From: Stylophora pistillata
Taxonomy: Eukaryota
Assembly: GCF_002571385.2 (NCBI RefSeq)
Contig: NW_019217852.1
Location: forward strand, 340,134-404,133
DNA length: 64,000 bases
Reading direction: 5' to 3'
Shown here: positions 2,680 through 59,414 of the stretch, piece after piece
Numbering within the stretch: the stretch's first letter is position 1
Layout: each line of letters starts with the position of its first letter
Made by a program: the position numbers and the translations under genes
The notes under the pieces: model-generated
Seen by the model: the letters and a program-made list of their open reading frames with translations, nothing else
Told to the model about the DNA's origin: nothing
The model's database searches: none

Positions 2680-3247
2680 TTTACTACAACGCCAGTACTC
2701 CGATTCAGAATTCAAATCTCTAGTTATTGAAAAAACAATCTGAATCTTAACGTTACTACTAATACTATGTGTTAAGAATCGTGATAGCTCTTCTTTTATC
2801 CACTACTTTTCTGCTGGGAAAGACATCTCGAAACTGAAAGTTGCCGAGAGAGCAGTAATCCATCGTGTACACACTTTTACTACTACGCCGGTACTCCTTC
2901 AGAATTCAAATCGGTAGCTATTGGAAAAACAATCTGTATCTTAATGTTACTACTAATAGTATCAGTCAAGAATCTTGATAGCTAGCACATCACGTGAGCA
3001 CATCACGTGAACCACGTCAGGCTCGACGGACTTTGAACCTGTGGGGGCTTTACACAGGGTAGGGTAGGAAAGGAAAGCGTTTTCCTTTCGGTTTCTCAAT
3101 CCTATGGAAAACTTCTTTCGAAACTAAAAATTGCTGAGAGTGCACTTTCAAATTCCGAACAAATACTTTTAACTGGGGACTTTTCCCGGCCAAGGACACT
3201 CGGCTCCTGGCCAATCAAGCCGGAGTCTTTTATCTAGGGGATTCCCC
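2680..3247 (+). promoter_or_regulatory. STING-1 promoter: ISRE/IRF-like sites, tandem E-boxes, UPRE, CCAAT and two kB sites
   Basis: GAAACTGAAAG 2830-2840; TCACGTGA 2990-2997 and 3003-3010; CCACGTCA (= TGACGTGG on -) 3012-3019; TTTCCTTTCGGTTTC 3081-3095; GGGGACTTTTCCC 3175-3187; CCAAT 3211-3215; GGGGATTCCCC 3237-3247, ending 118 bp before the ATG at 3365. Confidence 0.7.
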
Positions 3248-3364: not shown

Positions 3365-4815
3365 ATGGCTGAGAATCTTCTACCCCGAGGAGATGACTTA
3401 GCTCAGCAAGAGAATAATGGCTTTGGACCACTTTTCAAGCGTCGTGGAAGAACTGCCGCAATCACTTCAGCTATCATAGGTGTGAGTAGTGGCGCGATGC
3501 TATTCTTAGCGGTGAAAGAGGAAGAGAAGAAGACTCACTTCCTGGTATTTACAGCAGCCCTGCTTACCCTCAGTTTCGCTTTCGGGGAGCTATTACGAAG
3601 ATTGTCCCTGGTGTCGGAAGAGATTCAACACAAACACACGCGACACCAAGGAAAGTGGAAGAGTGTTTTTAAGACAACTTTCACTTTCGACCATGGCGGG
3701 TGTATTTCACTCACCGCTATGTTTTCTGCTTTAATCTTGTGTTATCAGCTGTATGAACAATACGAGGTTTTCTCGCGTTCAGATTTCGCCATCTTGTTTT
3801 CAGTGAACTGTCTCGTGGTTCCGCAATTGTTGTTCCTTGTGGGTCTTCGACAGCTCTCTCCTGTGGAAACTTCGGATTTGAACGAAAAAGAAAATAAGAA
3901 CGTGGCCGATGGACTGGCTTGGAGCTACTACTTTGGTTATCTGAAGCTGGTGCTGCCGCATCTGAAAGATCAGATTGCCAAATCAGAGCAATTTCGATAC
4001 AAGATAAAAAAGAAAAAGCTTTTTATTTTATTGCCCAAAACGTGCTTCACCCATGCTGACATCGTTGACGCAGATCCCAGAGTAAAATGGGCGGGCAATC
4101 TGCCAGAGCTTAAGATAAGTAGGGGTGGAATTAAGGACAGAATTTATAAGCATGCGGTTCATAAGATAGAGATGCCCCGCCCAGATGGAACGATGGATGA
4201 GTACCACTTTATTCTGGAGTATGCCACATCTCTGATGACCCTTTATGATATGTCTCAGCATGCAGACGCCCCCTTAAGTCGCAAGGAGCGGGATCATCAG
4301 GTAGGATAATGTGTGGTATGTTCCCTTTGATTTTTTTTTTTTAAGATGATAGAGGACTATGATCTGATTTCTCTAAAGATTTATAAAGAATGTTGTGACT
4401 GGCCATCTTGGATATGATTTTTTGTGGACAGATGCATGTTAAGATATGTGGTTTGTTTACAGTATGCCTTATTTGGTTATCTGCTTAATCAAATATGAAG
4501 TGATTTTACTGCCTCTCAGATTTGCCTCCAACATGGCTTGTCGAGTGTTTTAATACAACACAGAGCAACACAAAACAATGCAGTCTAACTGAAACCTTTC
4601 TTCCATGTAACTTACAGGTGGTGTTGTTCATCCGAAAATTGAGGGAAATTCTGGATAAGTCTGAAGAATGTAGAGGTAGTTACGAGTTGGTGCCAATTTC
4701 AGGAAATGATCCAAATGAGATTGCAAATGTCCTGGTTGGAATGCATAATGCCGCCAACATAGAGGTGCTGGCCGGCAATCATGATCAAGCCAATGGAGTA
4801 ATCAGACCAGAGTAG
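3365..4815 (+). CDS. STING1: Stimulator of interferon genes paralogue 1 (TM-STING, 377 aa, two exons, no vertebrate-type C-terminal tail)
   Basis: Exon 1 3365-4300 (GCCATGG start), GT..AG intron 4301-4617 in phase 0, exon 2 4618-4815 (TAG). N-terminal hydrophobic helices, then [37 protein letters not shown] and ILEYAT motifs of the STING cyclic-dinucleotide-binding domain. Confidence 0.96.
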
Positions 4816-5705
4816 TGACAGTTTTATAAAGCAATGTTAATTCATTGTTGAGAACTCTGTAACATGTTACATAAAATTGCTGATGTATCATAGGTAAATG
4901 TTACATTCATCTAGGAATTGGGCAGAATTACAAGACCCTTACTTATTTATTTTTTTCTTTTCTAAGTTATTATTAAAGTTTATAAAGAAGGATGACTTGC
5001 CATTAAATAGTACTTGTAGAAATACTGATTGTACTCTTTAAACCTTAAACTTCTTGGTTTAATCGACCACCAAAAGGTAAATTGATAATATTTTACCCCT
5101 AATATAAATTTGATTGACACATCATAGTATTTCTGTTGTTCTAAACAATCTGGGAGGCCAAAAAGTTTTATGCATGTTTAAGAGAGAGATCAAGTATCCC
5201 TGTTCTTTATATGACCAAAAGGGACTTGATCTGTAACTTAATCATGTAGAGAGCCCAAACTAGTTGAACTGAATAAATGAAAATACCATATTATCTTCAC
5301 ATGTGAAAATAACACCATTACTATGGTTGCATAATAAATTGCACCTTTGACAGTGAAAGTGAAATGGTTTGATTTTTCATTGGTGTAAATATAATAAATA
5401 GAATATTACATGGCTGCTTAGAAATAGAAAATTTCTCTTCTCATGTTGATATTTTAGCTGTTCGCTTTGCTCACTCATGAAACATTTTTCAACACTTGAA
5501 GAGAAGTTTTGTATCTCTGCATGGCCGTGTAGTATTCTCTTTTTATTGGATGAAGATGGTTGTTGCACTCTAATTCTATGAGCATATTATTAAGAATGAA
5601 ACTCACCACAATGCACTTCATAACTTTGTGCATTCAGTTATTGAATATGGATAATTGTGCTGTTCTGTGCTTCTTTATAATAAAATAATTTATTTGTGTT
5701 TTTCT

Positions 5706-5836
5706 CGTTGCCATGTTCCCACCAACCCACAATTCCTCTATTCGCTCCGACAAAGGGCTAACGCTCGAAACGTCAGCTTTTGTAATCATTATGGTGGCCA
5801 ATTTACCATTTCAACTTTGTCGATATATCCAAATTA
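5706..5836 (+). mobile_element. Penelope-like terminal-repeat fragment with degenerate hammerhead motif
   Basis: cacaattcctctattcgctccgacaaagggctaacgctcgaaacgtcagc...ggtggccaatttaccatttcaac; same family at 18040-18290, 19321-19570 and the end of 22630-23130, the last attached to a GIY-YIG remnant. Confidence 0.65.
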
Positions 5837-7886
5837 TTTCTTTTATAATAAACCCTTGACACCCTAATGTAAGTATGCAGATTCCCCACCGTTTCTATGG
5901 TATAATGACAGGGAGAATTTTTTTGACAATCAGGAACTTCTTAAATTGGTTTAACACCTTTTTCTTTCATATCAGAAGTCCTTTCATGCAGTGTAAGATA
6001 TCTACATTGTACTATCAGTTAAAATTTTCTATTTTCAATAAACAGTAACCACTAAGAAAGATGTAAACTTAGGGAAAGCTTTTAAGTGATCAATTAGCCT
6101 TAATTGTAAGATCGTTTTGAAATAATTCATGCGAAGTCCACTCCCCCCTCCTCAAACCCTGCAGGTGCAGAAATTCTTTAAGCCTGCTGTGGATTATTTT
6201 GAAATATCCTAATCCTTACTGCTCTCACAAAGACAGTTTTGTTTTGGAATCCCTTCTCCCAAAAAGATTTTTCCTTGGAATAGGTTTTCATTTACCTAAT
6301 TTATATTTAAGAAAATTAGGGGTATTCTAGATTTCAAGTGATTGAGATGACCTCAAAATAATCCCTAGGGCTTCAAACAAAACCCCATTAAATCCCTGGA
6401 CCAAACTAAAGTTTGGTTTTATTTTATTCATAGAACTACAAGCCTGGTCAGGTCAATCTTCAGATTGTTTTGAATACCTGAAAAAGCCCTACTCAATTCA
6501 AGCTAACCAAAACAAAAAATACTTGACAGAATTTTATTACCTATAAAATCTAGATATTGAAAAATTTCACTAAATACTTCTTTATTTCACAGTATTCTTT
6601 CAGTCATGTATTTAATGTCCCTGTGTAATTTTTTCTTTAGGAAGGTGCTCCCTTCCTCCCAAGAGAAAAGTGATAACCTTAAATAATTTTAAATCTGAAT
6701 CCTCCTTGTTATCAAGTGAATACCCTTGGTGTTAATGAGCTCTCTGTTTTCTTTTAATCTCCAACTCCCAAGATCTGATTACTACTTCTCTCCTCTAGCT
6801 GCTACACCTGTTAATTAATCACAAGAATTTGGTGTTAGATTAATAATGGTAATTGAACTGAGTGGAGTGCAATTTGGGCTGAAATCATACGCATGATTTG
6901 AAATCACAAGTATGATTTCAGACCAAAATTGCACAACACGAGGTTCAATTACCGCTTTATTACATCCATTTTGAAATCGCCCAAATACAGGACTAATGGT
7001 GGATTAACATATTTTATTGATGCTGTACTGAGCCGGTTTTGAAATAAAAAGAGGAAGCGGAGACGCTTTTGCATCTTATTTTGTATGCAAAACAGAAAGA
7101 CTGACGTCATGTGTCAAAAACTCAGTCAAGCGTAAAATGATGCGATTTAGAGCAAAAAATGGTGCGATTCCTGAATAAACCGCACCAATTAGAGCCAATC
7201 AGATTACAGGGACCACCCGTGATTTAACAACTTCTGCCTCATAGGTTTGAGTATTCTCATCACCTGTTTGCTGGTTAATGGACAGATATTATAGGGAGAA
7301 GTTACATGTTAATAACCTCTGGGAGTTGACGGGTTAAAACGTATGGTTTATTAACAATTTTACTTCAACGCTAATACCCAAAGCAGAATCCAAATCCAAA
7401 GTTATTGCAAAGACAATCTGAATCTGAAGGTTACTAAAAATAACATCGGTCAAGAATCGTGACAAGATGATAAGACTGATAGCACTTCTTTTATCCTAGA
7501 ACACACCTCAAATTGAATTGGTCCACAGTATCACTTGCAGCCCACCCCTGGTATTTTTTCGAAACTCTGAGTCTTTATCATCATTGAAGTCACAATCGTA
7601 ACATTTCATGCCATTCGCCTCGCAAGGTGGCGTGTGCTTCAGGTAAGATCAACAGAAGTATGTGTAGGTGCATTTTCTGGTGGAACTGGGAAACATGATC
7701 CCATTTGGCACTAGAATAAAACGGCTCTTGATGCCCCTCGATTCTCCTCGGTGAAGTGCCGAAGTATAGCGGAGCCAGCAAGCCAATTTTAAATTCCCCT
7801 CAATATTTATGAAAGTATACCAGGTGAGAATACCATTGTAAGCCTGGAAGTGAAGTAATTTGTCTTCTGAATACGGCTATTACACA

Positions 7887-8167
7887 TCACGTGAGAACCA
7901 CATCGTGCTTGACCGACTTTCAACCTGTTGGAGCTCCACTCGGGGGTGGGAAAAGACGTCTTCCTTTCGGTTTCTCATTCCTAAGGGAAAGGTTTTTCAA
8001 AACTGAAAGTTGCTGAGAGAGCACATTTAAACATCGAACAAATAATTCAAACACTGAAGTCCTTTTCTGGGAATTTCCCTTGGGGGCTGAGCCCACTGAG
8101 CCGAAGGACAAACTGATGCTTGGCTCTTGGCCAAACGAGGCCAAAGTCTTTATTGCGGGGATTCCCC
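7887..8167 (+). promoter_or_regulatory. STING-2 promoter: E-box, ISRE-like sites, two kB sites
   Basis: TCACGTGA 7887-7894; TTTCGGTTTC 7965-7974; AAAACTGAAAG 7999-8009; GGGAATTTCC 8069-8078; GGGGATTCCCC 8157-8167, ending 115 bp before the ATG at 8282. Confidence 0.7.
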
Positions 8168-8281
8168 TGTTAAATCATGTCGCTGACTAAATCGATTTGC
8201 TTTACACAGGCTGGTGCATTTCGTTGTAAGCATCTTCACGAGTAAAACAATCGTTACGTCTGAGAGGAACATTTTTTCACC

Positions 8282-10560
8282 ATGGCTGATAATCCTCTTC
8301 CACGAGGGAATGACTTAACTCAGCAAGAGAATAATGGTTTTGGACCACTTTTCAAGCGTCGTGGAAGAACTACCACCGCTACTTCAGCTATCATGGTTGT
8401 AATTAGTGGCGCGATACTATCGCTCGCGGTGGAAGAGAAAGAAAAAAGGGAAGGGATTCATTCCCTGGTGTTTACAGCAGCCCTGCTTACCCTCAGTTTC
8501 GTTTTCGGGGAACTATTTCGAAGATTTTCCTTGGTGTTAGAAGAGATCCAACACATACGCACGAGATACCAAGGAAAGTGGAAAAGTGTTATAAACTAAG
8601 ACAACTTTCACTTTCGATCATGACAAGTGCATTTTAGTCGCGACCATCGCTGCCGCTTTCATCCTGTGTTATCAGTTGTATGAACAATACGAGGTTTTCT
8701 CTCACTCAAACTTCGCTATCTTATTTTCCCTGAACTGTTTCGTGGTTCCGCATTTGTTGTTCCTTGTGGGTCTTCGACAGCTCTCTCCTGTGGAAAAATC
8801 GGATTTGTACGAAAAAGAAAACAAGAATGTGGCCGATGGGTTAGCTAAGGGCTTCTACTTTGGTTATCTGAGGCTGGTGCTGCCGCAACTGAATGAAAAG
8901 ATTGCCGATTCAGTGGAATTTCGATATTTGTTAAACGCGAAAAAGGTTTTCATTTTACTGCCCAAAACGTGCTTCACCTGTGATAGCATCGTTGACGCAG
9001 ATTCCAGGGTAAAGTGGGCCGATGATCTCCCGCCGCTTGAAATAAGTAGAGGTGGAATTCTGAAAAGAATTTACAAGCATGCGGTTTATAAGGTAGAGAT
9101 GCCCTGCCCAGATGGAACGGTGGAAGAGTACCACTTCATTTTGGAGTATGCCATGCCTCTGATGACACTTTACGATATGTCTCAGTATGCAGACCCCCCC
9201 TTAAGTCATGAGGAACGGGGATCATCAGGTAGGCTAGTTTCTAGTACGTCCCATTTGATTTTCAAGATGATAGAGGCACTACAAACAATACTGTGACAGA
9301 TCCTTAGACAAGGTACTAATGGGTCAAGCTTTGCTGTGTATTTCTTGCTAGCCTCTCAGAAACACTACCTCATTCTACTCCATTCTGTGGCCAGTTATAG
9401 ACCCCATTTAAGTAAATTTTGGGTAAATGTAATTTTCACTATCCTAGTGTGACCGAGGCAGGTTCTGATGTTGTTATTTGAACAACGAGACAGACTTATA
9501 GCCACAATAAAATTTATTTATACAGGAAAGTACAAAAGAAATAATACTGATAAAAAGATAGGGTGATTGCAAGCAAATCCTCAGTAAAATAGGTCACTAA
9601 CTTGAGGTTACATGTACTGGAGTTACTTTTTCTGTGACCAAGAGGTTCTGAGCTTGTAAGTGCTGATCTTGACACTCTGAACTACTGAGTTAAACTAACT
9701 AACTGTACTTCTTTTATAAGGAATCGAACAATAGCAGGAAATTCTCTAAAATTTTGGAAGTTAGGTGTGATCATTCTAAAGGAAATTTATGATGCAAATC
9801 CTGTGTGTATGATAATTTGGTTATCATAGGAAATAGTTAGGTGTGATGGTGCAAAAGGAAATTTATGATGCAAATCCTGTGTGTATGATAATTTGGTTAT
9901 CATAGGAAATAGTTTCTGAAAATGTAATTCTAAAATTATAACAAAAAATATTGCAATGTCATGCACAATTGTGAGCCTGGTCACACTAGACTTAGTCACT
10001 TTCTGTTTATGCATCTACCTAACAAAGCCTTTTAAGTTGGTCATCCTAAAGTGAGTAGGCACATTTGACTGCAAATCTTTCCATTTTTAAATCCATACTT
10101 ATCATGATTTGGCTTAACCCCAAAATCCCAAAAATTTGCAATGCCATCATAAGAGCTCAATTGAAAAGCAACCCCATTATAGTAAATCCAGTTATAAAAT
10201 TGTAAATTAACCCATCCATTAGCATGTCCCCAGTAGCCAGCTTTTACTAGGAATTCCCATCTTCTTCCCCCCCCCCCCCACCCTATGTGGACTGGTCCCC
10301 ATTAATATGATTTGTTTAAGGTCAGACACAGCAGTCTCACTGAAACCTTTCTTCCATGTAATTTATAGGTGGTGTTGTTCCTCCAAAAATTGACAGAAAT
10401 TCTGGATAAGTCCGAAGAGTGCAGAGGGACTTATGAGTTAGTACCAATCTCAGGAAATGATCCACATGAGATTTCAAATGTCCTTGTTGGAATGCATAAT
10501 GCTGCCAACATAGAAGTGCACAATCCTGCACCTAATGAACTGCACAGACCAGAACAGTGA
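8282..10560 (+). pseudogene. STING paralogue 2, frameshifted in this sequence
   Basis: Colinear with STING-1: exon 1 8282-9228, intron 9229-10368, exon 2 10369-10560. A net +4 nt at about 8591-8597 (GTT ATAAACT AAG versus GTT TTT AAG) gives TAA at 8597-8599; an extra G in the run 9217-9220 (CGGGG versus CGGG) shifts the frame again just before the donor. Confidence 0.85.
9448..9985. mobile_element. Probable solo LTR inserted in the STING-2 intron
   Basis: Begins TGTGACCGAGGC and ends GCCTGGTCACA (TG...CA with short terminal inverted repeat); flanked by a CTAG duplication (9444-9447, 9986-9989); absent from the STING-1 intron; internal ~60-bp direct repeat in about 9778-9914. Confidence 0.7.
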
Positions 10561-11202
10561 CAGCTCTAAACAAAATAATTCTAACTGAATGTGAAAAAAC
10601 TCTGATATTTTGCAGGACCCCAATATAATAAATCAATAACATTCTTTAGCAATGCATGTGGGACTGAGAAGCCTTTCTTTAACTTTTTTTTTAGTTCTTA
10701 TTAACTGAGCGGGAGGTCTGTATGGGAGAATCTTGACCGAGGTCACCAGTACAGACCAAACGCAGTGAGGTCTGTACCAGCGACCGAGGTCTAGAAAGCA
10801 ACGGAACATTATATTCTTTGTATCTTTTTTTTCTAGACTGCTCTAAATGCCAGTCTAGATGGGAAAATCTAGAACGCTTTCGATATTGATTTCAGCCAAT
10901 CAAATTCGTGAATTCGGTAGTTCCCAGTCCTTGTGAGACACAGCCATATAATAACAGTGAGTATTATAGTTAACCCACAAGATGACTGATGTTAAATAGT
11001 GCTTGTAGAAATGCAGATCATTTTACTCCAAAAACCTCTTGATTTTCATTGACTAAGAAAAAAGAAACTTGTTGAAAATTATTTATTAAATTGAACCCTT
11101 ACAGCTTACTAATTGACAGCTTATAATATTTCTGTTGCTCTGAACAATATGGAATGCCAAAATGTTTTATGGAGGTTTAAGAAAGAGAACCCAGTTGTAT
11201 AT

Positions 11203-11760
11203 AGTAAGTAAGTAAGTAACAACTTTATTTACAGAGGGTAACACATAACAGTTAAAAACTGATGAACCGGTGGCCCTCTATCTTAAGTTAAAATTTTAAA
11301 AACTATTTACACTTACAAGAAAATAAAATAATAATAATAATAATAATAAAAAACCTGGATAAAATCTGGATATGCACAACTAAAAACTAAGCTAAGAGTG
11401 CTTGGATAAAAAATACTTTCGAACAGAAGATTTAAAAGAGCCAATGGAGTCTTTCTTTCGAATGTCTAAAGGAATGCTGATCCATAGTTTTGCTCCACTG
11501 GCCTGAAAAGTTTGCCCTCTTCCATTTTTCTATTATAGGAGGGGCACACTAAGTTATATTTTCTATAGCGACTGTGGTTCTGGTGTGTCGGTCTGAGTTT
11601 TTCGTTAAAAGTTCTTGTTATATAGCTCAGACAATTATTTTCATCTTTGATGTCCCTGAATATTAAACTAGTCTTTTTAAGGTTTAATTCTTCCTTAAGT
11701 GGCACCCAATCAAGTCATCTAAAAAGCATCTCACTTCTTTCACTGATATCAGCATCCAAG
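11203..11760 (-). mobile_element. Degenerate LINE 3' fragment with simple-repeat tail
   Basis: Minus-strand remnant (LDWVPLKEELNLKKTSLIFR...YNLVCPSYNR) resembles a LINE ORF2 C-terminus; followed by AATAAA and a (TTAC)n tail near 11203-11230. Confidence 0.55.
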
Positions 11761-12879
11761 ATTATTTATTATTATCCAAGATTATTAATAATTATTATTG
11801 TGAATAATTTACTGTAATGTAGGGGTTAGGATTCTCATTTCTGCGTTGCCTTTTCTAATGACTGCTTATAATTGAAGATTCTGTCCTCAGTTGTGTGTCT
11901 TTCAGAACAGCCAAGATCCTGTGAATCATCACTTGAAGGACCTACAATTGTAGACTGAGCATGCTCAATTTGCTGGTTGTTGCATTTAAATAAATTTTTG
12001 TCCATCATACCCTCTCTAATCGTTTTGGCATAAAGTAGTTTAAATTTTGGTTTATGTGAACATTTCTTTTTCCTTAACCCCTTCCTCAGAGATAATTGTG
12101 TATAGAATTCCCTTCCATTTTCAAACCCATTGAGAGGAAAAATGACGATCAGAGCTTTTCAAATACCCTCCCTACCCCATAATAATGACCCTTCAAGGGT
12201 GGGTAGGTGGGTGCATTTCCTTACAACACAAGTAGGAATCAGGTTTTCAGTTCAACTTCATTCTGTGGGTATTCACCTTTTTATAACGCAAAATTTGGAT
12301 TAGTTTTAGATGAGCGAAGAAAATTCCTAGAGATGAAAAACTACTTTCTAAGGACTCTTGGTAGCACCCTAAATAAGACATGAGCCGACAGAATCATGGC
12401 TCTGGAATATATTGAGATTTTAGAAAAGGTTCATGAAAATTTAAGTTGTTCGAAGTTCATACCTGCCCCCCGACGCCTCGCTTCCTGGCCAAATATTCTG
12501 TTTTCCGGACGATATCTCAGCTGCGGACATTATCAGCCGACATACCAGTTGCCCAAAGGGTTTTATCTACTAAATATTTTACAACATGTGCCCAGCTGAA
12601 CAGATCCCATGAAACTTAACGACATTTAAAAACTTAACTTGTATTCACATGCCGCAGAGATAAATAACCGCCTCTCTGAGGTATACTTTCCCCGACAATT
12701 TATTACCTCATGCAAATTTAAGTGATGTTTGAATTCTTTCGATTCATTCAAATGACCCTGCTTTGTCAATTTGCTCAAGTTCAGTCCGATATATCAATAG
12801 TAACTGTTCCACGCCGCGCCTGTTCATAAATTTTTCCATAGTTTATAGGTAAGCTTGCGGAGAAAACCGCTGCCAGCCG

Positions 12880-12909
12880 CCAATCAAAATCGTAAGGGGA
12901 TTCCCCTTA
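12880..12909 (+). promoter_or_regulatory. STING-3 promoter CCAAT box and palindromic kB site
   Basis: CCAAT 12880-12884; GGGGATTCCCC 12896-12906 inside the longer palindrome TAAGGGGATTCCCCTTA; ends 142 bp before the ATG at 13048. Confidence 0.7.
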
Positions 12910-13047
12910 AAGCGAACCCAATAAGTTGAAAACAAAATGCCATCTGCCACGCAAGCAATTCGAGATCCCTTTCGAAGGCGCAAAGAAGAAAAAAAAAAAA
13001 AACATTCTGAAAGGGCAAGCACTAGAAGATTCGTCCTCATTTGATGA

Positions 13048-14807
13048 ATGGATCAACAGGAAAATAACGGATTTGGACCGATTTTCAAGCCCCGCGGCAA
13101 GGCTGTCACTTTCGCTTCAGTAGTGATAGCCATTATATCTGGGGCCCTTCTTGTGTTTGCGCTGTGGGAGAGCGAAGATAAGGACGGGATAAACTTTGTG
13201 TTCTTTGCAACAGCCCTTCTTATGCTAAGCGTAATTATAGGTGAACTAATCAGAAGGGTGTCGATGCTAGCTGAAGAAATTCGACACAAGCAGACCAGAT
13301 ATCAAGGGGAATGGAGGCGAGTTTTCAGATCTACTTTCGCATTTGAATATGGTTCTTGCATTTTAGCTGTCGGTACCACTTCCGTTCTGTTTGTGTGTTA
13401 TGCTTTGTTGCAAAACTACGAAGCTTTTTTCCGCCTAGATTATGGCATCTTCTTTATTCTGAACTGTTTTGTGATACCACAACTGGTTTTCATCGTTGGT
13501 ATCAGAGAACCGAACACAGTGGAAGCAACAATGTTGAACGAAAGAAATAACAAGAACGTTGCTGACGGCTTTGCATGGAACTACTACTTCGGCTACCTAA
13601 AGTTGGTTCTTCCTAGGCTTGAGGCTCAGATTGCAAAATCGTCGGAGTTTCGTTACAAGATAACCAAGAAGAAACTTTACATCTTGGTGCCGAAAACATG
13701 TTATGTTTATGATAATATTGCCGACGCAGATCCCAGGGTTACTTGGGCCGGTGATCTTACACCGTGTAAAATCAACAGGGGAGGGATAAAGGAAAGAATT
13801 TACAAACAAGCAGTTTACCGCGTAGCGATGACTGACAAACATGAATACTTCTTCATTTTGGAATACGCTTCCAATCTTATGTCCTTGTATGACATGTCTC
13901 TCCATGAAGACGCTCCCTTGAGTCGCCAAGAGCGGGATGATCAGGTACATAAACATCGACAGTGGTTTAGCTGGGTCTGTACTCTTATCGACAACGATAT
14001 TCGTCAGTACTGTCGTCAAAATATTGTGGACTCACGAGGCGCAGCCGAGTGAGTCAGCAACAAATCAATGTCGATATTATTTTTACCACAACTTCAAATT
14101 GAAATAAAACGACTCTTTCAGTACATGACACGTTGCGTGACGCGTTAACGCGAGCAGCGTTGTCCTTGTTCTTATTGGTCAATCAGACTGCGACATTACT
14201 GCCAATTGTGGAAAAATTCAGTTTTTTCTTAAATGTTTTGCCATCCGAAGGGAAAGGGTTTGTCGGGAACTTCTGAAGGTGGGGAACCCTAGGTAGATGA
14301 GGTAACCCACCAAGCCGAGGTCGAAAAATAGCCCGAGTTTACAAACAATCTTACATCCACCGGATCTCGGGGAGAAGGATCTAGAGGTTGTTGGCATGCT
14401 AGCAAATGTAACATGAACGCGACTCCGGCTAGGTGGGTTACCTCACCTTGAGACGTTTACATGGCAAATTGTGACCCTGACAGGGTTACCCTACCTAGCG
14501 GACAACACTTCCTGCCCAAGCAGGTTACTCCACCCATCATGTAAATATCAAATTAAATCAAAGTAAATAAGAAATTATATGAGAAGGCGTGGTTTGTTTG
14601 TTTGTTTTTTTTTTTTACATGCAAATCGTTTTCTTGTAGGTTGTTCTTTTCATTCGCAAACTGAGGGAAATTCTTGAGGGTTGTAAAGAATGCAGAGGAA
14701 AGTGCGAAATAGTTCCCATTTCAGGAGATGAAAAATCAAAGATAGCAGATGTTCTGGTGGCAATACATAATGCTACTCAAGTGGAGTCAGATGAAGCCGA
14801 CCTTTAG
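13048..14807 (+). CDS. STING paralogue 3 (354 aa, two exons)
   Basis: Exon 1 13048-13944, intron 13945-14639 (same phase-0 position as the other paralogues), exon 2 14640-14807 ([29 protein letters not shown]...ESDEADL*). Motifs [37 protein letters not shown]. Confidence 0.95.
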
Positions 14808-16992: not shown

Positions 16993-17475
16993 CTACACTA
17001 CAGGAAATGTCATGTCTACTTTATCCCCAAGACCACAAGCTATAGTTTGTCCAGGCTTGACTTCCGAGACACCTTCCGGAGTCCCTGTCAAAATTAAATC
17101 TCCTTCCTCTAAAGTCATACTCTGACTGATAAAGCTGATCAAATAAGGAATGGTAAAGATCATATCTCGGGTGTTTCCATCTTGTTTTAGTTCTCCATCA
17201 ACTTTCAGCCAAATATGGACATTATCAGGTTCTGGAATCTCTGTCTTGGAGACGAATCTACTGACAGGCAATGCAGTATCAAAACCTTTAGCAAGTGTCC
17301 ATGGTTGACCCAGCTTCTTGGCTTTATTTTGAAGATCTCTTGCAGTCATATCAAGTGCAAGAGCATATCCCCCAACATAATCCATTGCATTGGATTCCGG
17401 AATAGACACGCCTGTCTTACTAATCACAACACCAAGTTCTACTTCATGGTGAAGCTCGTCACAGCCTGGAGGAAG
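16993..17475 (-). CDS. FAHD1-like terminal exon (canonical-type catalytic C-terminal ~160 aa); no private 5' exons found
   Basis: Acceptor ttgcag then LPPGCDELHHEVELGVVI...ALDMTARDLQ...PWTLAKGFD...GDLILTGTPEGV to the stop at 16993-16995; phase 0, compatible with the donor after exon 2 (21288) of the neighbouring copy. Confidence 0.85.
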   Translation of the reverse strand, partial: LPPGCDELHHEVELGVVISKTGVSIPESNAMDYVGGYALALDMTARDLQNKAKKLGQPWTLAKGFDTALPVSRFVSKTEIPEPDNVHIWLKVDGELKQDGNTRDMIFTIPYLISFISQSMTLEEGDLILTGTPEGVSEVKPGQTIACGLGDKVDMTFPVV

Positions 17476-17619
17476 CTGCAAGCAAAACAAATATGTAAAT
17501 GAGAGAATAGAAAATAAAAGTCTATGGATAAGTATGCCGTAGCAATAACGTTCAAAGAGTTCGAAAAAGCCTTAATTCTAGCCTCCAAAGTGTATAAATA
17601 TTTTTTAAAAATTGGGGGT

Positions 17620-17930
17620 CATAAGAATTGGACCAACACTCAAGGTCTTAAAATAATTGAGAAGAATTTGCTACCTTTCTATAACATCAAGAAATGGTTA
17701 GATATTCTAGTCTTCTCGGATAGGGACGAATAAATGGAGGTCCCGTCTCCTGCAGGGTTGGGGGTAGGAGACGTTAATTTCCCACGCACGAGATTACTGT
17801 GTGATGGATGTCCTCCCCTGGGGTGGGATGGGTGGGTTTACTGGGCCCGCAGTAATCGGCGCAAGCTGTTGCGGTGTCCCTGCCGGTTGGCGAAGCTAAA
17901 TAAATCATAAATCATAAATCATAAATCACA
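17620..17930 (+). mobile_element. SINE-like fragment (Nin/Deu-domain-like) with (ATAAATC)n tail
   Basis: cactcaaggtcttaaaataattgag...gtcttctcggatagggacgaataaa resembles recalled cnidarian SINE cores; tandem ATAAATC tail at about 17900-17927. Confidence 0.45.
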
Positions 17931-18039
17931 AACATTTCTTAGCCTAGTATAATTTTTTTATTTCACTTTAACCTCAACCTGATACTAAGAATGTTTGTCC
18001 CTTAGCTGGAAAAAATTTAAAATAATCAATACTTTCCAA

Positions 18040-18290
18040 TGAATAAAGGCTGATAGTTTCAAAAGAAACTGTTTGGGGCTGCGTCGGTAGGAGTAACGAA
18101 ATAATTTGGATATATCAAAAAAGTTGCCATGTTCCCACCAACAACGTAGCTCCATTCTCTGCCTTTAAAAGGACACACAACCCACAATTCCTCTATTCGC
18201 TCCGACGAAGGGCTAACGCTCGAAACGTCAGCTCTTGTAATCGTTACGGTGGCCAATTTACCATTTCAACTTTGTTGATATATCCAAAAT
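18040..18290. mobile_element. Penelope-like terminal repeat with inverted segment and hammerhead-like motif
   Basis: Shares atgaataaaggctgatagtttc...aaataatttggatatatcaa with 19321-19400; motif gctccgacgaagggctaacgctcgaaacgtcagc at 18199-18232. Confidence 0.65.
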
Positions 18291-19320
18291 ACTTTCTAAC
18301 ATATGGAATGTTTGTAACAATGCAGTTAATTTTCAACATTTAGCAATACAAAATTTGGAGCACTTGGTAGGCTTTCATTTTCATGGTACAGGCACGTAGG
18401 GTGGTCATTTTTTCAAGTACACACAAGTACATATAATCTAGAAACCTAAGTAAACTGAGCGAAAAAATAGAAACAATAGGCTATTTTACAGTTGTGTACT
18501 TAGTTGCCAAGCCTTTGATTCAGTGAGGCTAAAGATGACCTTGTTGTGATAGAGACCTGTATCTAGTTAGCATGATAACAAAGTGATTTACATTTGAAAG
18601 GCAGCAAGGTTTGTATCATAACAAGGTCATCCCTTGCCTCACTCCCGTTCAAAGGCTTAGCAACCAAGCACACAACTGTAAAATGGACTATTGCTAAAAA
18701 ATTTCAAAATTTTCTGGTCACTTCAAGTATGCACGTGTATATATGTGTATAGGATGCTACGTGCCTGTGGTAGGGGTTAGAGCTTTTAAAGGTGTGTTAT
18801 GTCACAGATCTGATATAAAGGAGAAACATAATGTTTGTATGTTGTATGATTTGATGACAAAACAGAAAAGAATTGTAAGAACAATATATTTGCAATTGAA
18901 AAAATTCACCCACTCAGGCTTTTTTTTTTTACCCTTTATATCCTTATAACAGTATGCATATGCTGTAAACTGTTCTCTAAACATTTCCGAGAATTCATTC
19001 AGCACTCAAGAACTTCTTCACTTTGTGATCATTATTTTAATTCTCATGACCTTAATGTGTGATTTAGGGATGACTTTGTACTTGGAGAAATTAGATGCTT
19101 GTCAAACTAAGAGGTCAAAGGGTTTATTATCTCATTTGCGCATCTAGATGAAGGTGTACCATCCTCACTGGTGGTATCACATAGAAAGTGAGCTTCCGGT
19201 ACAAGCATGTTTTTGAACATTTTAGAGAGGGACATACCCACTTTTTTAAGGGTGTTACCCCTCTCAAAGAAAAATTTCTTTATTACCCTTTGCATTAGAT
19301 CTGTGAACCTAAAAAATATT

Positions 19321-19570
19321 TATGAATAAAGGCTGATAGTTTCGAAAGAAACTGTTTGGGGCTGTGTCGGAGGGAGTAACGAAATAATTTGGATATATCA
19401 ACAAAGTTGAAGAGGTAAATTGGCCACCGTAACAATTACAAAAGCTGATGTTTCGAGCGTTAGCCCTTCGTCGGAGTTCACTCCAACAAAGGGCTAACGC
19501 TCGAAACGTCAGCTTTTGTAATCGTTACGGTGGCCAATTTACCATTTCAACTTTGTTGATATATCTAAAA
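19321..19570. mobile_element. Inverted pair of Penelope-like terminal repeats
   Basis: Hammerhead-like motif on - at 19444-19476 immediately followed by the same motif on + at 19481-19513; flanking arms are reverse-complementary. Confidence 0.7.
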
Positions 19571-19590
19571 AAAATATTTATCACAGCCCT

Positions 19591-21535
19591 TTAAGATGAC
19601 ACAGGGAAGGTCATTTCTATCTTGTTCCCCAGTCCACAAATTATTGTCTGACCCCTTTTCACTGGGGAACCTCCCTCTGGAGTTCCTGTTAAAATCAAAT
19701 CCCCTTCTTCTAATGTCATGTAACGGCTGACAAAACTGATTAAATGAGGAATCTTATAAATCATATCCTGTGTATTTCCATCCTGCTTTGTTTCACCGTC
19801 AACTTTCAACCACAGATGTACATCGTTTGGGTCTGTAATCGCTGATTTGGGTATAAATTCACTGACTGGTGTTGCTGTGTCAAAGCCTTTGGCAAGTGCC
19901 CATGGGTAGGTAACTTTAATGGCTTCATTCTGAAAATAGAAGGAAACATGACTTATCAGAATCCTATTTAGGATAATTACTTAACCGTTTAGCTCTCAAG
20001 ATCAGATGGTTAAATCTCCCCTCTACCTTCTATACATTTCCTTACAAATAAGTTTCGAGAGTTTGGTGTTAGATCAAGTTAAAAACTTCTACCTGATAAG
20101 TTTGAGTATTCTCATTACCTGTTTGCTGGAAAATGCATAAATACTATGATGAGAAGTTAGGGGCTAATTTAAAATGCAAAATGAGTAAAAGAGCTCAACT
20201 CTTACTTTATTTTTAGTATTCACTACAATAGAACACTTTGCAATACCTTGATAAAAATAAAAGTATATTCTAGATGATAGGAAAGATATACAGTCAATAT
20301 CTCGAGGTACTCATGAGCCTTGACAAAATTCACAATGTTTTAACAGTTATTGAGGTAGCATGATGTAAAAGGCTGAAAAAAAATCAGGGAAATAGTCACT
20401 GAGGTGTTAATAACCTATGAGCAGGCCTTCTTTTTCAAGAAGGGGGGGGGGTAATAAAAGCTTGAGGCTCTCTTCTCACGAGGACCAACAACTTTTACAT
20501 TGATCACTAACTTCCAACTAACTCCTAAAAATATGCATAATTGCACATTTGGTAAGTGATCACTGCTTTTTGAGCCAAAAGGCTAAAAAAGACTTACTTT
20601 TTCAGTTATAAGATCAAAATCAGTCATGTCTAGAGCCAGAGCATATCCTCCAACATGCTCCATAGCTTGAGACTCTGTAATAGTTTTGCCAGTTTTGCCA
20701 ATCACAACTCCAAGCTCTACTTCATGATAAATCTGATCACGACCCACTGGAATCTGTTGAAAGTGTTAAAAAATCATGATTTTGCGTGTGCTTGAGGATC
20801 ACAAGGTTTTATAAAACACTTCTTTGAACAACTAGTTAGTGTTAGCATCCTGTAGGGATTATGAAGGTTTGTGGGTACCATTTAATTCACATGCAACACC
20901 TGTCAAGAGTCAACTTCCAACACTATTAATGACATGGCCGACTCCATAAATGTTTATGACGTAAATCCCCTCTTCTGATTGGTTACTAGGGGTGCAAAAT
21001 ATTCAAAACAGGCCCCATTTTAACCTGTCTGATTTGCGATCATATATGTTGGCTACTTTAAACACAAATGTCTTACGCTTTGGCGTGAAACGTAATCACC
21101 ACGCTTTTCACATGAACAAGTGACCATTGAACCTCAACTCCTCCACAAAGGAGGTGCCACATAACCGTGTAGGGAATCCCCAAGCCAGGACTAAACTCTA
21201 ATTCTAAACAAAACACATTATCGCCAGTCGATATCTTTTTCAAGTCTCGATCCCACTGATACCTTTTACGCTATCTCGAGAACTTACCTTAATTTTTTCC
21301 CCCGGACTCAAATATGTTGACGTTGGTTTTAAAAAAATCAAGGGATCTTGAGCAGGAGGGGGCTGTTGTGGCGATCCGTTGGGCCTGAATTAACGAAAGG
21401 AGTCTACAAATAAGACACTGAAAAAGGTTTAAAAAAATAAATAAAAAAACAGACTAACCTGTAGTTTTTACCCACGCCGATAATTTTGCGTCCAAATTCC
21501 ACAAACCTTCTGAGATCTCGTCCTTGGGAAGCCAT
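19591..21535 (-). CDS. FAHD1: FAHD1-like fumarylacetoacetate-hydrolase-family protein, divergent copy (222 aa, four exons)
   Basis: Exons 21535-21459, 21384-21288, 20753-20598, 19929-19591; all GT-AG and phase-consistent. MASQGRDLRRFVEFGRKIIGVGKNY...PLIFLKPTSTY...YHEVELGVVIG...ALDMT...PWALAKGFD...GDLILTGTP. Confidence 0.9.
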
Positions 21536-49828: not shown

Positions 49829-51987
49829 ATGGGTGACATTAGAACAGAGGCGTTTCCGACTAAAAAGCTGGACTCGCGACAAGATTCAGAACTGGATCGT
49901 CCGGTTATTGAGTCTCGATTGGATTCCAGAATGGACTACTACGCCAGCAAGTTGGCTCTACGCGCGAGCCTGCGCTACACTGGAGAGGATGACCAGTGGC
50001 AGACCAGTCGCAGTTCTCTTCGTGAAAGAAATGAATACATGTTCAACCGCGAGTTGTTTAGTGATGTGCGTTTCCTGGTTGGCAGGACAGAGAAAACATC
50101 CATTCCTGCCCATCGGTATATACTGGCCATTAGTAGTCCAGTGTTTTCTTCTCTTTTTTACGCGTTTGGGGCACTTCAGACTGAAGTAACTTCGCGAGAG
50201 CAGGTAAACAAAAATATAAATAAACACATAGACAAATTAACAAAACAACTCAAACTATTAAAGTTTTAATTTGTTTATATTTTGTGGTCTTGTTGATTGT
50301 CGGATGTGATGCCAAATTGTGGAAGCAATGTCAATCTATGAACGAGGATCGGTTTAAATTTTAGAGAGGACAAGCTCACTTTTATGCAGGGTGGGGAACC
50401 ATGTCGACTTCGTAAAAGCACTCGCCAGTCACTAGCCAAGATTCAAGGTGTCACGTGCCTAAACTAAAACCAACTCAACAATGTTTATTTCCCAATAGCG
50501 AGTACAAAACTACTGCCGGTACCAGTGTGGGGAGTAGGCCAACCTAAAAAAAAAAAAGAATTGTAATCGCTTCATATTCATGGTCAGGATTCCTCAGGAA
50601 ATGGCTTCCCTCATACTATCAGTTAATTGGCAGTCAATTTTCTTTAGTTCCTCCTTTGTACTCTGTTGGCGACGACTGACCCCCCTTCCCCACTCCAATC
50701 CCCCTGAAAACCTTGTGATCCCCCAACATCCTCCGCTCTCCCCTCCCACGCGATCAATAATGACTGATCCTTTGTCAACTTCTAGTTGATAGCCAACTGT
50801 GTTTCCACTAGTACTGACCTAGCGCCTGAAATTTGTCGTTTTAGGTAGAAATATCAGAGTGTGAACCGGAATCGTTTCTGGAGATGCTCAGGTATATGTA
50901 CTACGACGAAGTGCAGCTGACCATAGATAACGCACCAGAAGTCTTGTTCTTAGCCCGGAAGTACCTTATTCCAAGCTTGGCGGAGATCTGCACTGAATTC
51001 ATCGCAAGTAACTTAACTGTAGCGAATGCTCTTCCCGTATTGGACCATTGTTGTCTGCTTGGAGTCAGCAAAGGCCTGGAGAAGCAATGTTGGACTATCA
51101 TCGACCAACATGCTTCGGAAGTAGCTCAGGACCACCAATTCGTAAATATCGACCACGGCACACTTACAGCTCTCTTGAAACGCGACACCTTAGTTGCCAA
51201 GGAAACAGTACTTTTCCAAGCAGCTGTGAAGTGGGCGGGGCGAGAATGCCAGCGCTTGTCACTTCCGGTGACAGTTGAGAATAAACGCGAGGTTCTGGGG
51301 GATGCGTTCTATTCCATTCGTTTCCCATTAATGAACATGAAAGAATTCACTGAGAATGTGGCTCAGTCATCTTATCTGAGCCACGAAGAAGTTGCAAATA
51401 TGTACGTCGGTTTCAACTCCAATTTCCAGTCATGTAAAGTGAGATTTCCAACAGAGCCTCGTGGTGGTTTTACCCGCGCTGAGCATCGTCAAGAGCCAGT
51501 CTTTCGCTGCACGCGTTTCGAATCAACAGCGGTGCGCCCAAAGTGGACGGCAGTCACGCCGCAGCAATCCACCGTGAAATTCAAGGTTAACCAGCCGATC
51601 AGCTTAACAGGCGTAGCCCTGTATACGCCTGTCATGCAATCAGCCTCGTCGCGTTTTAAAATTGAGCTGCGTGACTGCAACGATTCTATGCTAACGTCAC
51701 ATCAAGCAGATCTTGATAACCGGGACGATGATAGTGACACGCAAGACGTCATATTTTCAGAAGGGATAAAATTACAAAATGATGTGATCTATTCAATCAC
51801 TGTTACGTCAGAAGAAGTCTTGGAGCGCTTTGGAGAGGGGCAGAGGAGTGATATCCGCTGTGAAGGCGTCGATTTTGAGTTCTTTGAGGAATCAGGGGAT
51901 GAAGAAGTGACAGGACAAATACCAGAACTTTTGTTTCAGCCTTTCAAAGAGGCACCATTATCAAAGGCTTTTGCTGAAGACTATTAG
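49829..51987 (+). CDS. BTB-BACK-PHR protein (BTBD3/BTBD6-like Cullin-3 adaptor), about 505 aa
   Basis: Exon 49829-50203, intron 50204-50844, exon 50845-51987. BTB (FSDVRFLVG, IPAHRYILAISSPVF, FLEMLRYMY, LARKY), BACK (LFQAAVKWA, IRFPLM), PHR end GQIPELLF. The ATG directly follows an AG acceptor, so further 5' exons may exist. Confidence 0.92.
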
Positions 51988-57947: not shown

Positions 57948-59414
57948 TCAGCTACACTTACAATGCGTTGCTGGACAATTTCCCTTGGCACAATTTGAAG
58001 CACACCAAGCATTCATTCCTGCATTGCCAGTCCACGGACCAGCAGCGACACACTTTCCACCTGCACCCCCTCCCCCTGGAGTTGTGGTGGGACCCACTGG
58101 AGGTGGAGCTTCGGTAGTGACAGGAGGAGGCGGAGGCGCTTGTGTAGTATCTGGGTTAGGGGGTGGGGCTTGCGTTGTTAGAGGAGGAGGATTGGTAACT
58201 GGAGGTGGTTGTACCCCAGAGGTAAGGTATTCCTTGACGGCGTTCATCAGTGGGTACTTGCCTTGTCCGCAGTGCTCTCCAGAAAAGTCATCCAAGTCAA
58301 TCGCCCAGAACATAACACCTCGTAGTGCGTTCTTCATTACCACGTTATCAATCTTGTATATCAGGCTTGCCGGGTTGTCGTAACCCACCCAGTCCTTATC
58401 CTTGTAACCGTACGGCGCCATGGCCTTGTTTTCTTCTACCACCGTCAGTCCCATTTTGCAGATCTCGTAATAAGCCAAGAACCCCTCTGCGCCTGTGTAC
58501 TGTCCTTTAGGAGTGTATTGGTAATCACGAGCAGCATCAAGACCATTCGTTCCCGGGCTTGCTAACCCAAACGCACGTCCGTATGTGGCCAGACCGAGGA
58601 CAATCTTGTTAGCTGGCATCCCTTTCCTGATTCCTGGCTTTTCCCATGTGTCTCTGTTGTTCATCCAGTACCACACAGCGAAGGGGAGGGTCAACTTGTC
58701 ACCTTCTGGCCCCATAGCAGCGTGGTGCCCTGTCTTGTATTCCCATGTACCGTGAAGATCATACGTCATCAAATTGATCCAGTCAAGGGGCTCAGCAATA
58801 GCAGCAATGTCGTATGCACCTTTGATGGTCCAAAGTCCTGCAGCCACCGCTGCAGTTAACAGCAAGCGCTCTTTCCCAGTCGCTTTAGCTTCTGCCTCGA
58901 ATGCAGCTCTTAGCTCTTTACAAAGAAGAGTAAATCGTCCCTTATCACTTTTGGGAGATCCACCGCGCATGCCAGGGTACTCCCAGTCTAGGTCCAGACC
59001 ATCGAATCCAAACCATCTCAGAGTGTCAATGGACGACTTGATAAAGATCGCTCGCTTCTCCTTCGTCGCCACCATCATAGAAAATGGGCTGTCTTTCTCT
59101 TCATGAGTCCATCCACCAACAGCGATTTGAGTCTTCAGCTTTGGGTTGGCTTTCTTGAGTGCATTGATTCTTTCGTACAGATCGTGATCGTTCTCTTCGT
59201 AGATCTCCAATGTGTGAGTTGTTTTGCTGACCTGTGCAAAGGAGAAGAGTACATGAGTACATAGGAATGGATCGATGTCTTCAGGCCAGAACGTTCCTCC
59301 TTTGGGTCGATACTGGGACCAATTGGTGTAGTAACATCCACGGATGTATTCTGAAACCGCAGGCTGGAAAACAAGTACACAGCCAAGGAGCAGAGAGATC
59401 AACACCAATTTCAT
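57948..59414 (-). CDS. Secreted GH18 chitinase, intronless, 488 aa, with Pro/Thr linker and Cys-rich C-terminal module
   Basis: Signal peptide; [15 protein letters not shown], catalytic [11 protein letters not shown] (DxDxE intact), [24 protein letters not shown]; TATATAAA on - at 59486-59479. Confidence 0.96.

Follow-up and report, generated by a model that had tools for sequence, protein, structure and literature searches.

STING receptors of the coral Stylophora pistillata have already been described in a 2023 preprint (Li et al., 10.1101/2023.02.22.529553), for which STING1, 2, 3 and 5 were purified. There, Sp-STING1, 2 and 5 prefer 2'3'-linked dinucleotides, and a preference of Sp-STING3 for 3'3'-linked dinucleotides via N178 and S275 is reported from EMSA and crystal structures. 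Asn178 reaches the phosphate of 3'3'-cGAMP and Ser275 reads free 2'-OH groups, while STING1 and human STING have Ser/Thr there and use them to read 2'3'-cGAMP. The tuning of STING paralogues through Asn/Ser exchanges in the floor of the pocket is thus known for one of the proteins encoded here, and the present finding is mainly a rediscovery, because binding assays and crystal structures of that protein were already published. What the window (the whole stretch of 64,000 nucleotides analysed) adds is modest: the layout of an array with STING1, 2, 7 and 3, and an intact paralogue with a P264S change.

We consider it about 80% probable that the three copies studied close a tandem coral STING array at its 3' end and have different fates: copy 3 is Sp-STING3, already published as preferring 3'3'-linked dinucleotides; copy 1 is intact, with a predicted preference for 2'3'-linked messengers; and copy 2, although transcribed, is disrupted by two frameshifts, its unusual residues likely being due to relaxed selection. 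The features are the following:

3237..3247, no strand: palindromic kB-type site GGGGATTCCCC, 128 bp before the start codon (ATG) of copy 1
3365..4300, + strand: copy 1 coding exon 1, encoding the transmembrane domain and the larger part of the ligand-binding domain; canonical at S162, Y163 and T263
4229-4231, + strand: copy 1 P264S codon
4618..4815, + strand: copy 1 coding exon 2, with the end of the ligand-binding domain, then a short tail
8157..8167, no strand: kB-type site, 125 bp before the start codon (ATG) of copy 2
8282..9228, + strand: disrupted exon 1 of copy 2, in which the frame opened by the ATG closes after 105 aa
8591..8599, + strand: first frameshift of copy 2, which has four bases more than copy 1 here; TAA stop at 8597-8599
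8847..8855, + strand: copy 2 codons for K161, G162 and F163
9153..9155, + strand: copy 2 M263 codon ATG, which is ACG in three upstream paralogues
9217..9220, + strand: second frameshift of copy 2, an additional G, after which exon 2 is read in the wrong frame as far as a stop at 10407-10409
10369..10560, + strand: exon 2 of copy 2; two RNA runs show it joined at 9228/10369, though not in frame
12896..12906, no strand: kB-type site, 152 bp before the start codon (ATG) of copy 3
13048..13944, + strand: copy 3 (Sp-STING3) coding exon 1
13579-13581, + strand: copy 3 N178 (S162N) codon
13870-13872, + strand: copy 3 S275 (T263S) codon
13873-13875, + strand: copy 3 N276 (P264N) codon
14640..14807, + strand: copy 3 coding exon 2; the 8EFN chain is an exact substring of the spliced product

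Each locus consists of two coding exons separated by a phase-0 intron, and the three copies lie at the 3' end of an eight-locus STING array. The gene of Sp-STING1 is found in the same array, 27 kb upstream of copy 1 (G000:C69:316612); STING1, 2, 7 and 3 fall within one 40-kb array that includes broken and duplicated copies. An upstream duplicate of copy 1 is putative, the assembly having a gap at G000:C69:338808-340133. The products of copies 1 and 3 (377 and 354 aa) both carry the PF23417 transmembrane domain in the same reading frame as the PF15009 ligand-binding domain, which scores 177 bits in copy 1 and 178 bits in copy 3 (cut-off 27 bits). In copy 2 no single open frame joins the transmembrane domain to a complete ligand-binding domain; a fragment scores 114.5 bits to PF15009 but covers only profile positions 1-128 of 182, the last 54 being missing. 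Such an array would evolve by birth and death, and one annotated "STING" being a pseudogene affects gene counts. The kB-type site has three exact matches in 64 kb against 0.03 expected, one before each copy. This shared predicted site would make the paralogues co-inducible by NF-kB, in which case ligand choice and not expression would separate them. A literature search for a description of the STING cluster or of the copy 2 pseudogene turned up only the preprint and a review, and we regard the physical clustering, the pseudogene status of copy 2 and the presence of Asn162 in four separate coral lineages as modestly new.

The ligand-binding domain of copy 3 (residues 170-354 of the spliced product) is identical to the PDB 8EFN chain over 185/185 aa, and UniRef names it "STING protein 3". 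The supplements of Li et al., as far as available, gave no mapping of Sp-STING numbers to accessions; the residue numbers N178, Y183, R250 and S275 of copy 3 agree with those in the preprint, where the 3'3' preference and a closed structure are published for the identical protein. The pair Asn162 plus Ser263 that defines the STING3 type is present in copy 3 and in neither copy 1 nor copy 2, and N162 with S263/N264 recurs in 13 of the 15 sequences listed for an orthologue cluster that has 311 members at 90% identity. The domain omega on the copy 3 branch is 0.15. The initial annotation had stated correctly that Drosophila STING carries an Asn (N159) at the equivalent site (PMC8410604). However, the 3'2' preference suggested by this likeness does not hold for copy 3, whose Asn accompanies a 3'3' preference in the published data; we set aside a 3'2'-cGAMP-preferring copy 3, the assays reported in the part of the preprint available including none with a 3'2' ligand. 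Its broader proposal, an array of receptors tuned to different messengers, stands for the species and for copy 3, where it had been shown experimentally before, and gains no evidence from copy 2.

Copy 1 corresponds to the UniRef entry "STING protein 7", its spliced product being identical to P0004. An identity with Sp-STING1 was considered and rejected, STING1 being the separate gene upstream. The two proteins (Sp-STING1 as in PDB 8EFM and 8GJZ) share S162, Y163, T263 and the core stacking and lid residues, with about 71% identity over the domain, and differ in S264, I239 and T267 of copy 1, which are P, S and S in Sp-STING1. Because S162/Y163/T263 are kept, we infer that copy 1 is STING1-like, and its residues predict a preference for 2'3'-linked messengers. 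The description of copy 1 as canonical is correct for these three positions but not for 264, where it has Ser and 153/163 homologue representatives have Pro; P264S is a putative modifier of its ligand preference.

The pocket motifs quoted earlier for copies 1-3 are all present, the three loci lie at the coordinates given for them, and the equivalents of Y167, R232, R238, Y240 and E260 are retained in the three copies. Human numbering for 158-167 was checked on a full-length PDB chain of 379 aa. The other human numbers in 232-267 were set by offset and by what we take the correspondence to be. For R238 and S162 we followed the structural equivalences of Li et al. W161, K236 and D237, which had been counted as pocket positions, are absent from the two literature ligand-contact lists compared, and W161 is placed in the literature at the hydrophobic dimer interface. 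The claim that the paralogues differ specifically at pocket residues found no support either, since there is no excess of differences at 12 literature-defined contact sites: copies 1 and 2 differ at 4/12 pocket sites vs 39/166 in the rest of the domain (p=0.32), and copies 1 and 3 at 4/12 vs 51/163 (p=0.56). Among the 93 domain sites common to four paralogues, 11 carry an amino acid private to copy 2 (for copy 1 the figure is 2/84), and two of the 11 are pocket sites (p=0.19). Enrichment was sought in raw pairwise differences, with conservation weighting (three thresholds) and in private residues, and none of these was significant, the power with 12 sites being low. A lack of enrichment in copy 2 had been named beforehand as a result that would count against the initial annotation, and it is what we found. 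Still, tuning can hardly be excluded in this way, because copy 3, for which tuning is proven, fails the test too.

Copy 2 is a transcribed unprocessed pseudogene by its lesions, its retained intron and promoter, its transcription and its relaxed dN/dS. Splicing of its transcript is seen in two polyA RNA runs, each from a different study, and one RNA run carries a further 5-base insertion at 8772. The public gene models (201 and 261 aa) lack a match to STING_TM and reach only position 128/182 of the Pfam domain. Omega on the copy 2 branch is 0.60 vs 0.33 in the background for the whole gene (p=0.010) and 0.66 vs 0.27 for the domain (p=0.004), the latter value being indistinguishable from 1 (p=0.22). 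The whole-gene value is just below 1 (p=0.047), hence part of the branch was constrained and some of the changes may predate the breaks; copy 2 would have kept working during an initial period of divergence and decayed later. Given the double frameshift and the relaxed constraint, copy 2 offers no evidence of a third tuned receptor, and its odd pocket residues likely reflect decay or relaxed selection. Gene conversion from a paralogue is unsupported as the source of its codons, no other copy in the genome having K161, F163 or M263.

A more adaptive view of the locus is possible, although we think it doubtful: the pocket floor (162/263/264) would be a switch reset many times in corals, with the ancestor of copy 2, and copy 1 with its S264, as further tuned receptors for coral messengers such as 3'3'-cUA, all induced via one shared kB site. 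Asn162 is found on the STING tree at four separate points (a single clade is rejected, AU p=0.0004), twice accompanied by the loss of Thr263-Pro264, and both Asn/Ser162 and Arg/Thr263 vary inside single 90% clusters. Independent N162 proteins are P0083/P0116, with V263-Q264, P0261, and P0272/P0306 of Porites. The natural N162, V263 and R263 variants of other corals could be used for testing the published rule.

Rather unlikely, and somewhat less probable still, is that copy 2 was a receptor retuned for a different messenger (a G162/F163/M263 floor and an L236/K237 lid) that lost its frame recently. Its changes look clustered at 161-163 and 236-237, with two-base changes at 161 and 236, but this is not borne out as pocket enrichment, and W161K, seen in none of the other sequences compared, affects a site described at the dimer interface that is invariant in 163/163 homologue representatives. 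Most of its other residues occur in further coral STINGs (G162 in 43, L236 in 53, K237 in 74, F163 in 4 and M263 in 2 of the 163 representatives), so these may represent working variants and not damage. M263 is found in 5/5 members of one cluster, but the representative of that cluster also has R232W, and only 1/15 members of an Acropora cluster carry it; moreover, because the paralogue codon is ACG, M263 is a single CpG transition away. The five core residues, the promoter kB site, splicing and a whole-gene omega below 1 agree with a retuned receptor. Against it, no intact orthologue was found among the matches listed (the best 120 of 230, 120 of 124, these being 113-363 aa proteins only, and 120 of 138), no intact copy-2-like protein was present among 341 proteins fetched, and a metagenome scan (24 loci, at most 65% identity) found none.

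Truncated dominant-negative STING isoforms occur in mammals, and copy 2 could similarly act as a decoy or regulatory transcript (a membrane fragment of 105 aa, or a domain truncated at ~70% of its length) damping the intact paralogues. The spliced polyA transcript and the conserved kB site would fit such a role, but the extra frameshifting insertion and the raised omega suggest no constraint, and the intron by which the public models bypass the first break is not among the joints that the two RNA runs show, although contigs can reveal a joint but not its absence. We therefore consider this role improbable. Least credible of all are assembly errors or a private allele, with three working receptors in the species: one break does lie in a G run and the gene is transcribed and spliced, but both public models are truncated and both frameshifts sit inside gap-free contigs in 4/4 sequencing runs, including the two polyA runs (frameshift 1 being spanned by contigs covering 8472-8783 or longer), so that this explanation is largely refuted. 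The runs come from at most 3 studies and may stem from related colonies, and contigs drop rare alleles.

Compared with described systems, copy 3 has the same N178/S275 determinants as Sp-STING3 (8EFN), with no difference at the protein level, and the tandem genomic arrangement seen here is absent from the available part of the Sp-STING3 paper (10.1101/2023.02.22.529553). Drosophila STING and copy 3 both have an Asn replacing human S162 at the pocket floor; in Drosophila it reads the adenosine 3'-OH of 3'2'-cGAMP, with R229 displaced (PMC8410604), whereas in copy 3 it contacts the 3'3'-cGAMP phosphate together with S275. The STING of another cnidarian, Nematostella vectensis, has no extended C-terminal tail, is induced by 2'3'-cGAMP and by infection, and is treated in the accessible part of its description as a single receptor of high 2'3'-cGAMP affinity (PMC8713801), in contrast to the expanded array of intact and broken copies in S. 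pistillata.

Copy 3 is a protein whose structure has already been solved: its spliced product contains the chain of PDB 8EFN (185 aa) without a mismatch, and the whole protein is the UniRef entry "STING protein 3" from Stylophora pistillata. According to the available text of Li et al. (bioRxiv 10.1101/2023.02.22.529553), this coral has seven STING genes, four of which were purified (1, 2, 3, and 5); three of these favour 2'3'-linked dinucleotides and STING3 favours 3'3'-linked ones. The structural basis given there is twofold: N178 touches the phosphate of 3'3'-cGAMP, and the free 2'-OH groups are recognised by S275. The numbering of copy 3 agrees with the published N178, Y183, R250, and S275 (the published Y253 is its Y252), and the S162N and T263S changes picked out by the initial annotation are the published determinants N178 and S275. 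Its core claim, STING paralogues with differing messenger preference, is already known.

The three STING loci of the window are built alike, a single phase-0 intron separating a long coding exon 1 from a short exon 2:
3365-4815, plus strand: copy 1, STING locus, 377 aa
8282-10560, plus strand: copy 2, STING locus
13048-14807, plus strand: copy 3, STING locus, 354 aa

All the motifs previously quoted were found in the three copies by a sequence check, and the equivalents of Y167, R232, R238, Y240, and E260 are retained in each. The description of copy 1 as canonical holds for these core residues but not at 264, where it has Ser (LEYATS) in place of the Pro found in 153 of 163 homologue representatives. 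Human numbering for 158-167 matches a 379-aa PDB chain, and outside that stretch and R238 we assumed residue numbers by offset. The S162 and R238 equivalences come from Li et al. (bioRxiv 10.1101/2023.02.22.529553, available text). Copy 1 equals UniRef "STING protein 7," which rules it out as the published STING1; if UniRef numbers follow those of Li et al., as they do for STING1 and STING3, it lies outside the purified set.

Copy 2 is broken. At two places it is longer than copy 1: by four bases near 8591, so that the frame ends after 105 aa, and by a single G at 9217-9220, so that exon 2 is out of frame. Contigs span both breaks gap-free in all four runs used (of 24 listed), two of which are polyA RNA from different studies; both RNA runs show the splice from 9228 to 10369, and one has an extra 5-base insertion at 8772. 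Both public gene models, 201 and 261 aa long, still stop at profile position 128 of 182, neither has a STING_TM match, and their intron skipping the first break is absent from the splice joints seen in the RNA runs. No intact copy-2-like protein was found among the 341 proteins compared. The intron of copy 2 also contains an inserted high-copy repeat (9447-9985) with depth far above its flanks.

The codon model comprised 16 sequences, seven from the S. pistillata genome and nine metagenome loci; five intact frames were left out as near-duplicate or too distant, and five more loci yielded no frame. On the copy 2 branch, omega was 0.60 versus 0.33 for the whole gene (p=0.010), just below 1 (p=0.047), and 0.66 versus 0.27 for the domain (p=0.004), indistinguishable from 1 (p=0.22). 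Domain values were 0.11 for copy 1 and 0.15 for copy 3. Such values would be expected if selection had held the gene for some of its past and had later relaxed, and copy 2 is most likely a transcribed pseudogene without function.

The paralogues had been said to differ specifically at pocket residues. Over 12 contact sites (162, 163, 167, 232, 238-241, 260, 263, 264, and 267, from the available portions of PMC4680857 and PMC10519070), which give little power, copies 1 and 2 differ at 4/12 pocket sites and 39/166 elsewhere (p=0.32), and copies 1 and 3 at 4/12 and 51/163 (p=0.56); conservation-weighted pocket-enrichment tests gave no significance either. We drop the word "specifically," but the copies may still be tuned, since power is low and even copy 3, the proven case of tuning, does not stand out by this measure. 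Among the six changes listed for copy 2, those at 162, 163, and 263 are pocket sites, and those at 161, 236, and 237 fall outside these contact lists; W161 is placed at the hydrophobic dimer interface in the available text of PMC13392436. Residues of the copy 2 type recur among the 163 of 166 cluster representatives that cover the sites (G162 in 43, L236 in 53, K237 in 74, F163 in 4, and M263 in 2), and none has a residue other than W at 161. A single CpG transition in the ACG codon that three paralogues carry would give T263M. At the 93 sites where four paralogues agree, private residues number 11 in copy 2, with two at pocket sites (p=0.19), and copy 1 has two in 84 sites in the same comparison. 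That copy 2 was retuned as a receptor before breaking appears unlikely, if not negligibly so.

The most likely picture would be an array evolving by birth and death. A genome search found at least 10 STING loci, eight of them in tandem at 316.6-355 kb of contig G000:C69, in the order STING1 (identical to PDB 8EFM), STING2, fragment, STING2 near-twin, copy 1 duplicate, copy 1, copy 2, and copy 3; outside the array lie one broken locus on C69 and one intact gene on contig C33. Several of these loci, in contig coordinates, are:
G000:C69:322123 and 333847: STING2 and near-twin, 99% identical in the domain, with an R232-Ala-Gly-Ile-Leu lid and Q241
G000:C69:327846-329133: STING1-like fragment, ligand-binding part without the membrane part, a short stretch duplicated ahead of the NVADG motif
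G000:C69:335325-338807 versus 341421-344900: copy 1 duplicate, 99.3% identical overall, cut by an N gap
L015:4712-6439 (locus at about 781 kb of G000:C69): isolated broken STING copy, membrane part with stops and frameshifts, altered lid

Because the final 2,888 bases of the copy 1 duplicate, intron included, are identical to copy 1 and it adjoins the gap, it may be an assembly duplication or a very recent copy. In the assembled proteins P0124 and P0129, another paralogue's N-terminus is fused to a copy 1 body, reflecting either chimeric assembly or gene conversion. We found no description of the tandem cluster or of the copy 2 pseudogene in the literature searched, most subscription papers being outside it. 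Neighbouring genes in the window, the last two presumed from motifs, are:
16993-21500, minus strand: FAHD-like (fumarylacetoacetate-hydrolase-domain) gene pair in tandem, next to the end of the array
49829-51987, plus strand: presumably a BTB/BACK/PHR-type gene
57948-59423, minus strand: presumably a GH18 chitinase-like gene

In other corals, N162 and S263-N264 are retained in 13 of the 15 listed members of the 311-member orthologue cluster (90% identity to copy 3). On a tree of 56 rows, picked to include all pocket variants and with three trait columns removed, N162 falls in four separate places, and the eight N162 rows as one group are rejected (AU p=0.0004); an earlier tree had already separated two of these groups, and one group carries V263-Q264. 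A Porites cluster has N162 in 3/6 members and S162 in 3/6, and a Pocillopora cluster has R263 in 3/12. The four placements and the within-cluster variation suggest, at the sequence level, that the pocket floor may have been reset repeatedly among corals. In the 90% cluster of protein P0016, which includes P0317 from Pocillopora meandrina, 238 is Arg, Lys, or Glu and 263 is Thr or Arg.

The palindrome GGGGATTCCCC, a putative NF-kB site by consensus, precedes the ATG of each copy by 125-152 bases, and these are its three occurrences in the window, against 0.03 expected:
window 3237-3247, 8157-8167, and 12896-12906: kB-type palindrome before copies 1, 2, and 3
G000:C69:322011, 333723, and 337277: the same palindrome before other array genes

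All six occurrences in the 104 kb examined precede an array gene. In front of STING1 a variant of it is present, and the site lies upstream of 6/9 metagenome STING loci checked from other corals. A CCAAT-like box usually stands just before it, and ISRE-like GAAANNGAAA/TTTCNNTTTC motifs lie farther upstream in most cases, copy 3 excepted. The receptors of the array would probably be co-inducible. In the available texts, Nematostella STING is induced by both 2'3'-cGAMP and infection (PMC8713801), and STING is expressed in coral immune cells (PMC8162421).

Within such an array, STING3 takes 3'3'-linked messengers and STING1 and STING2 2'3'-linked ones, as shown in print, and copy 1 probably takes 2'3'-linked messengers. 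The Drosophila Asn invoked as a precedent for position 162 is real, but its ligand differs: in the available text of PMC8410604, the fly N159 serves 3'2'-cGAMP, whereas N178 of copy 3 contacts the phosphate of 3'3'-cGAMP, the linkage that STING3 prefers.
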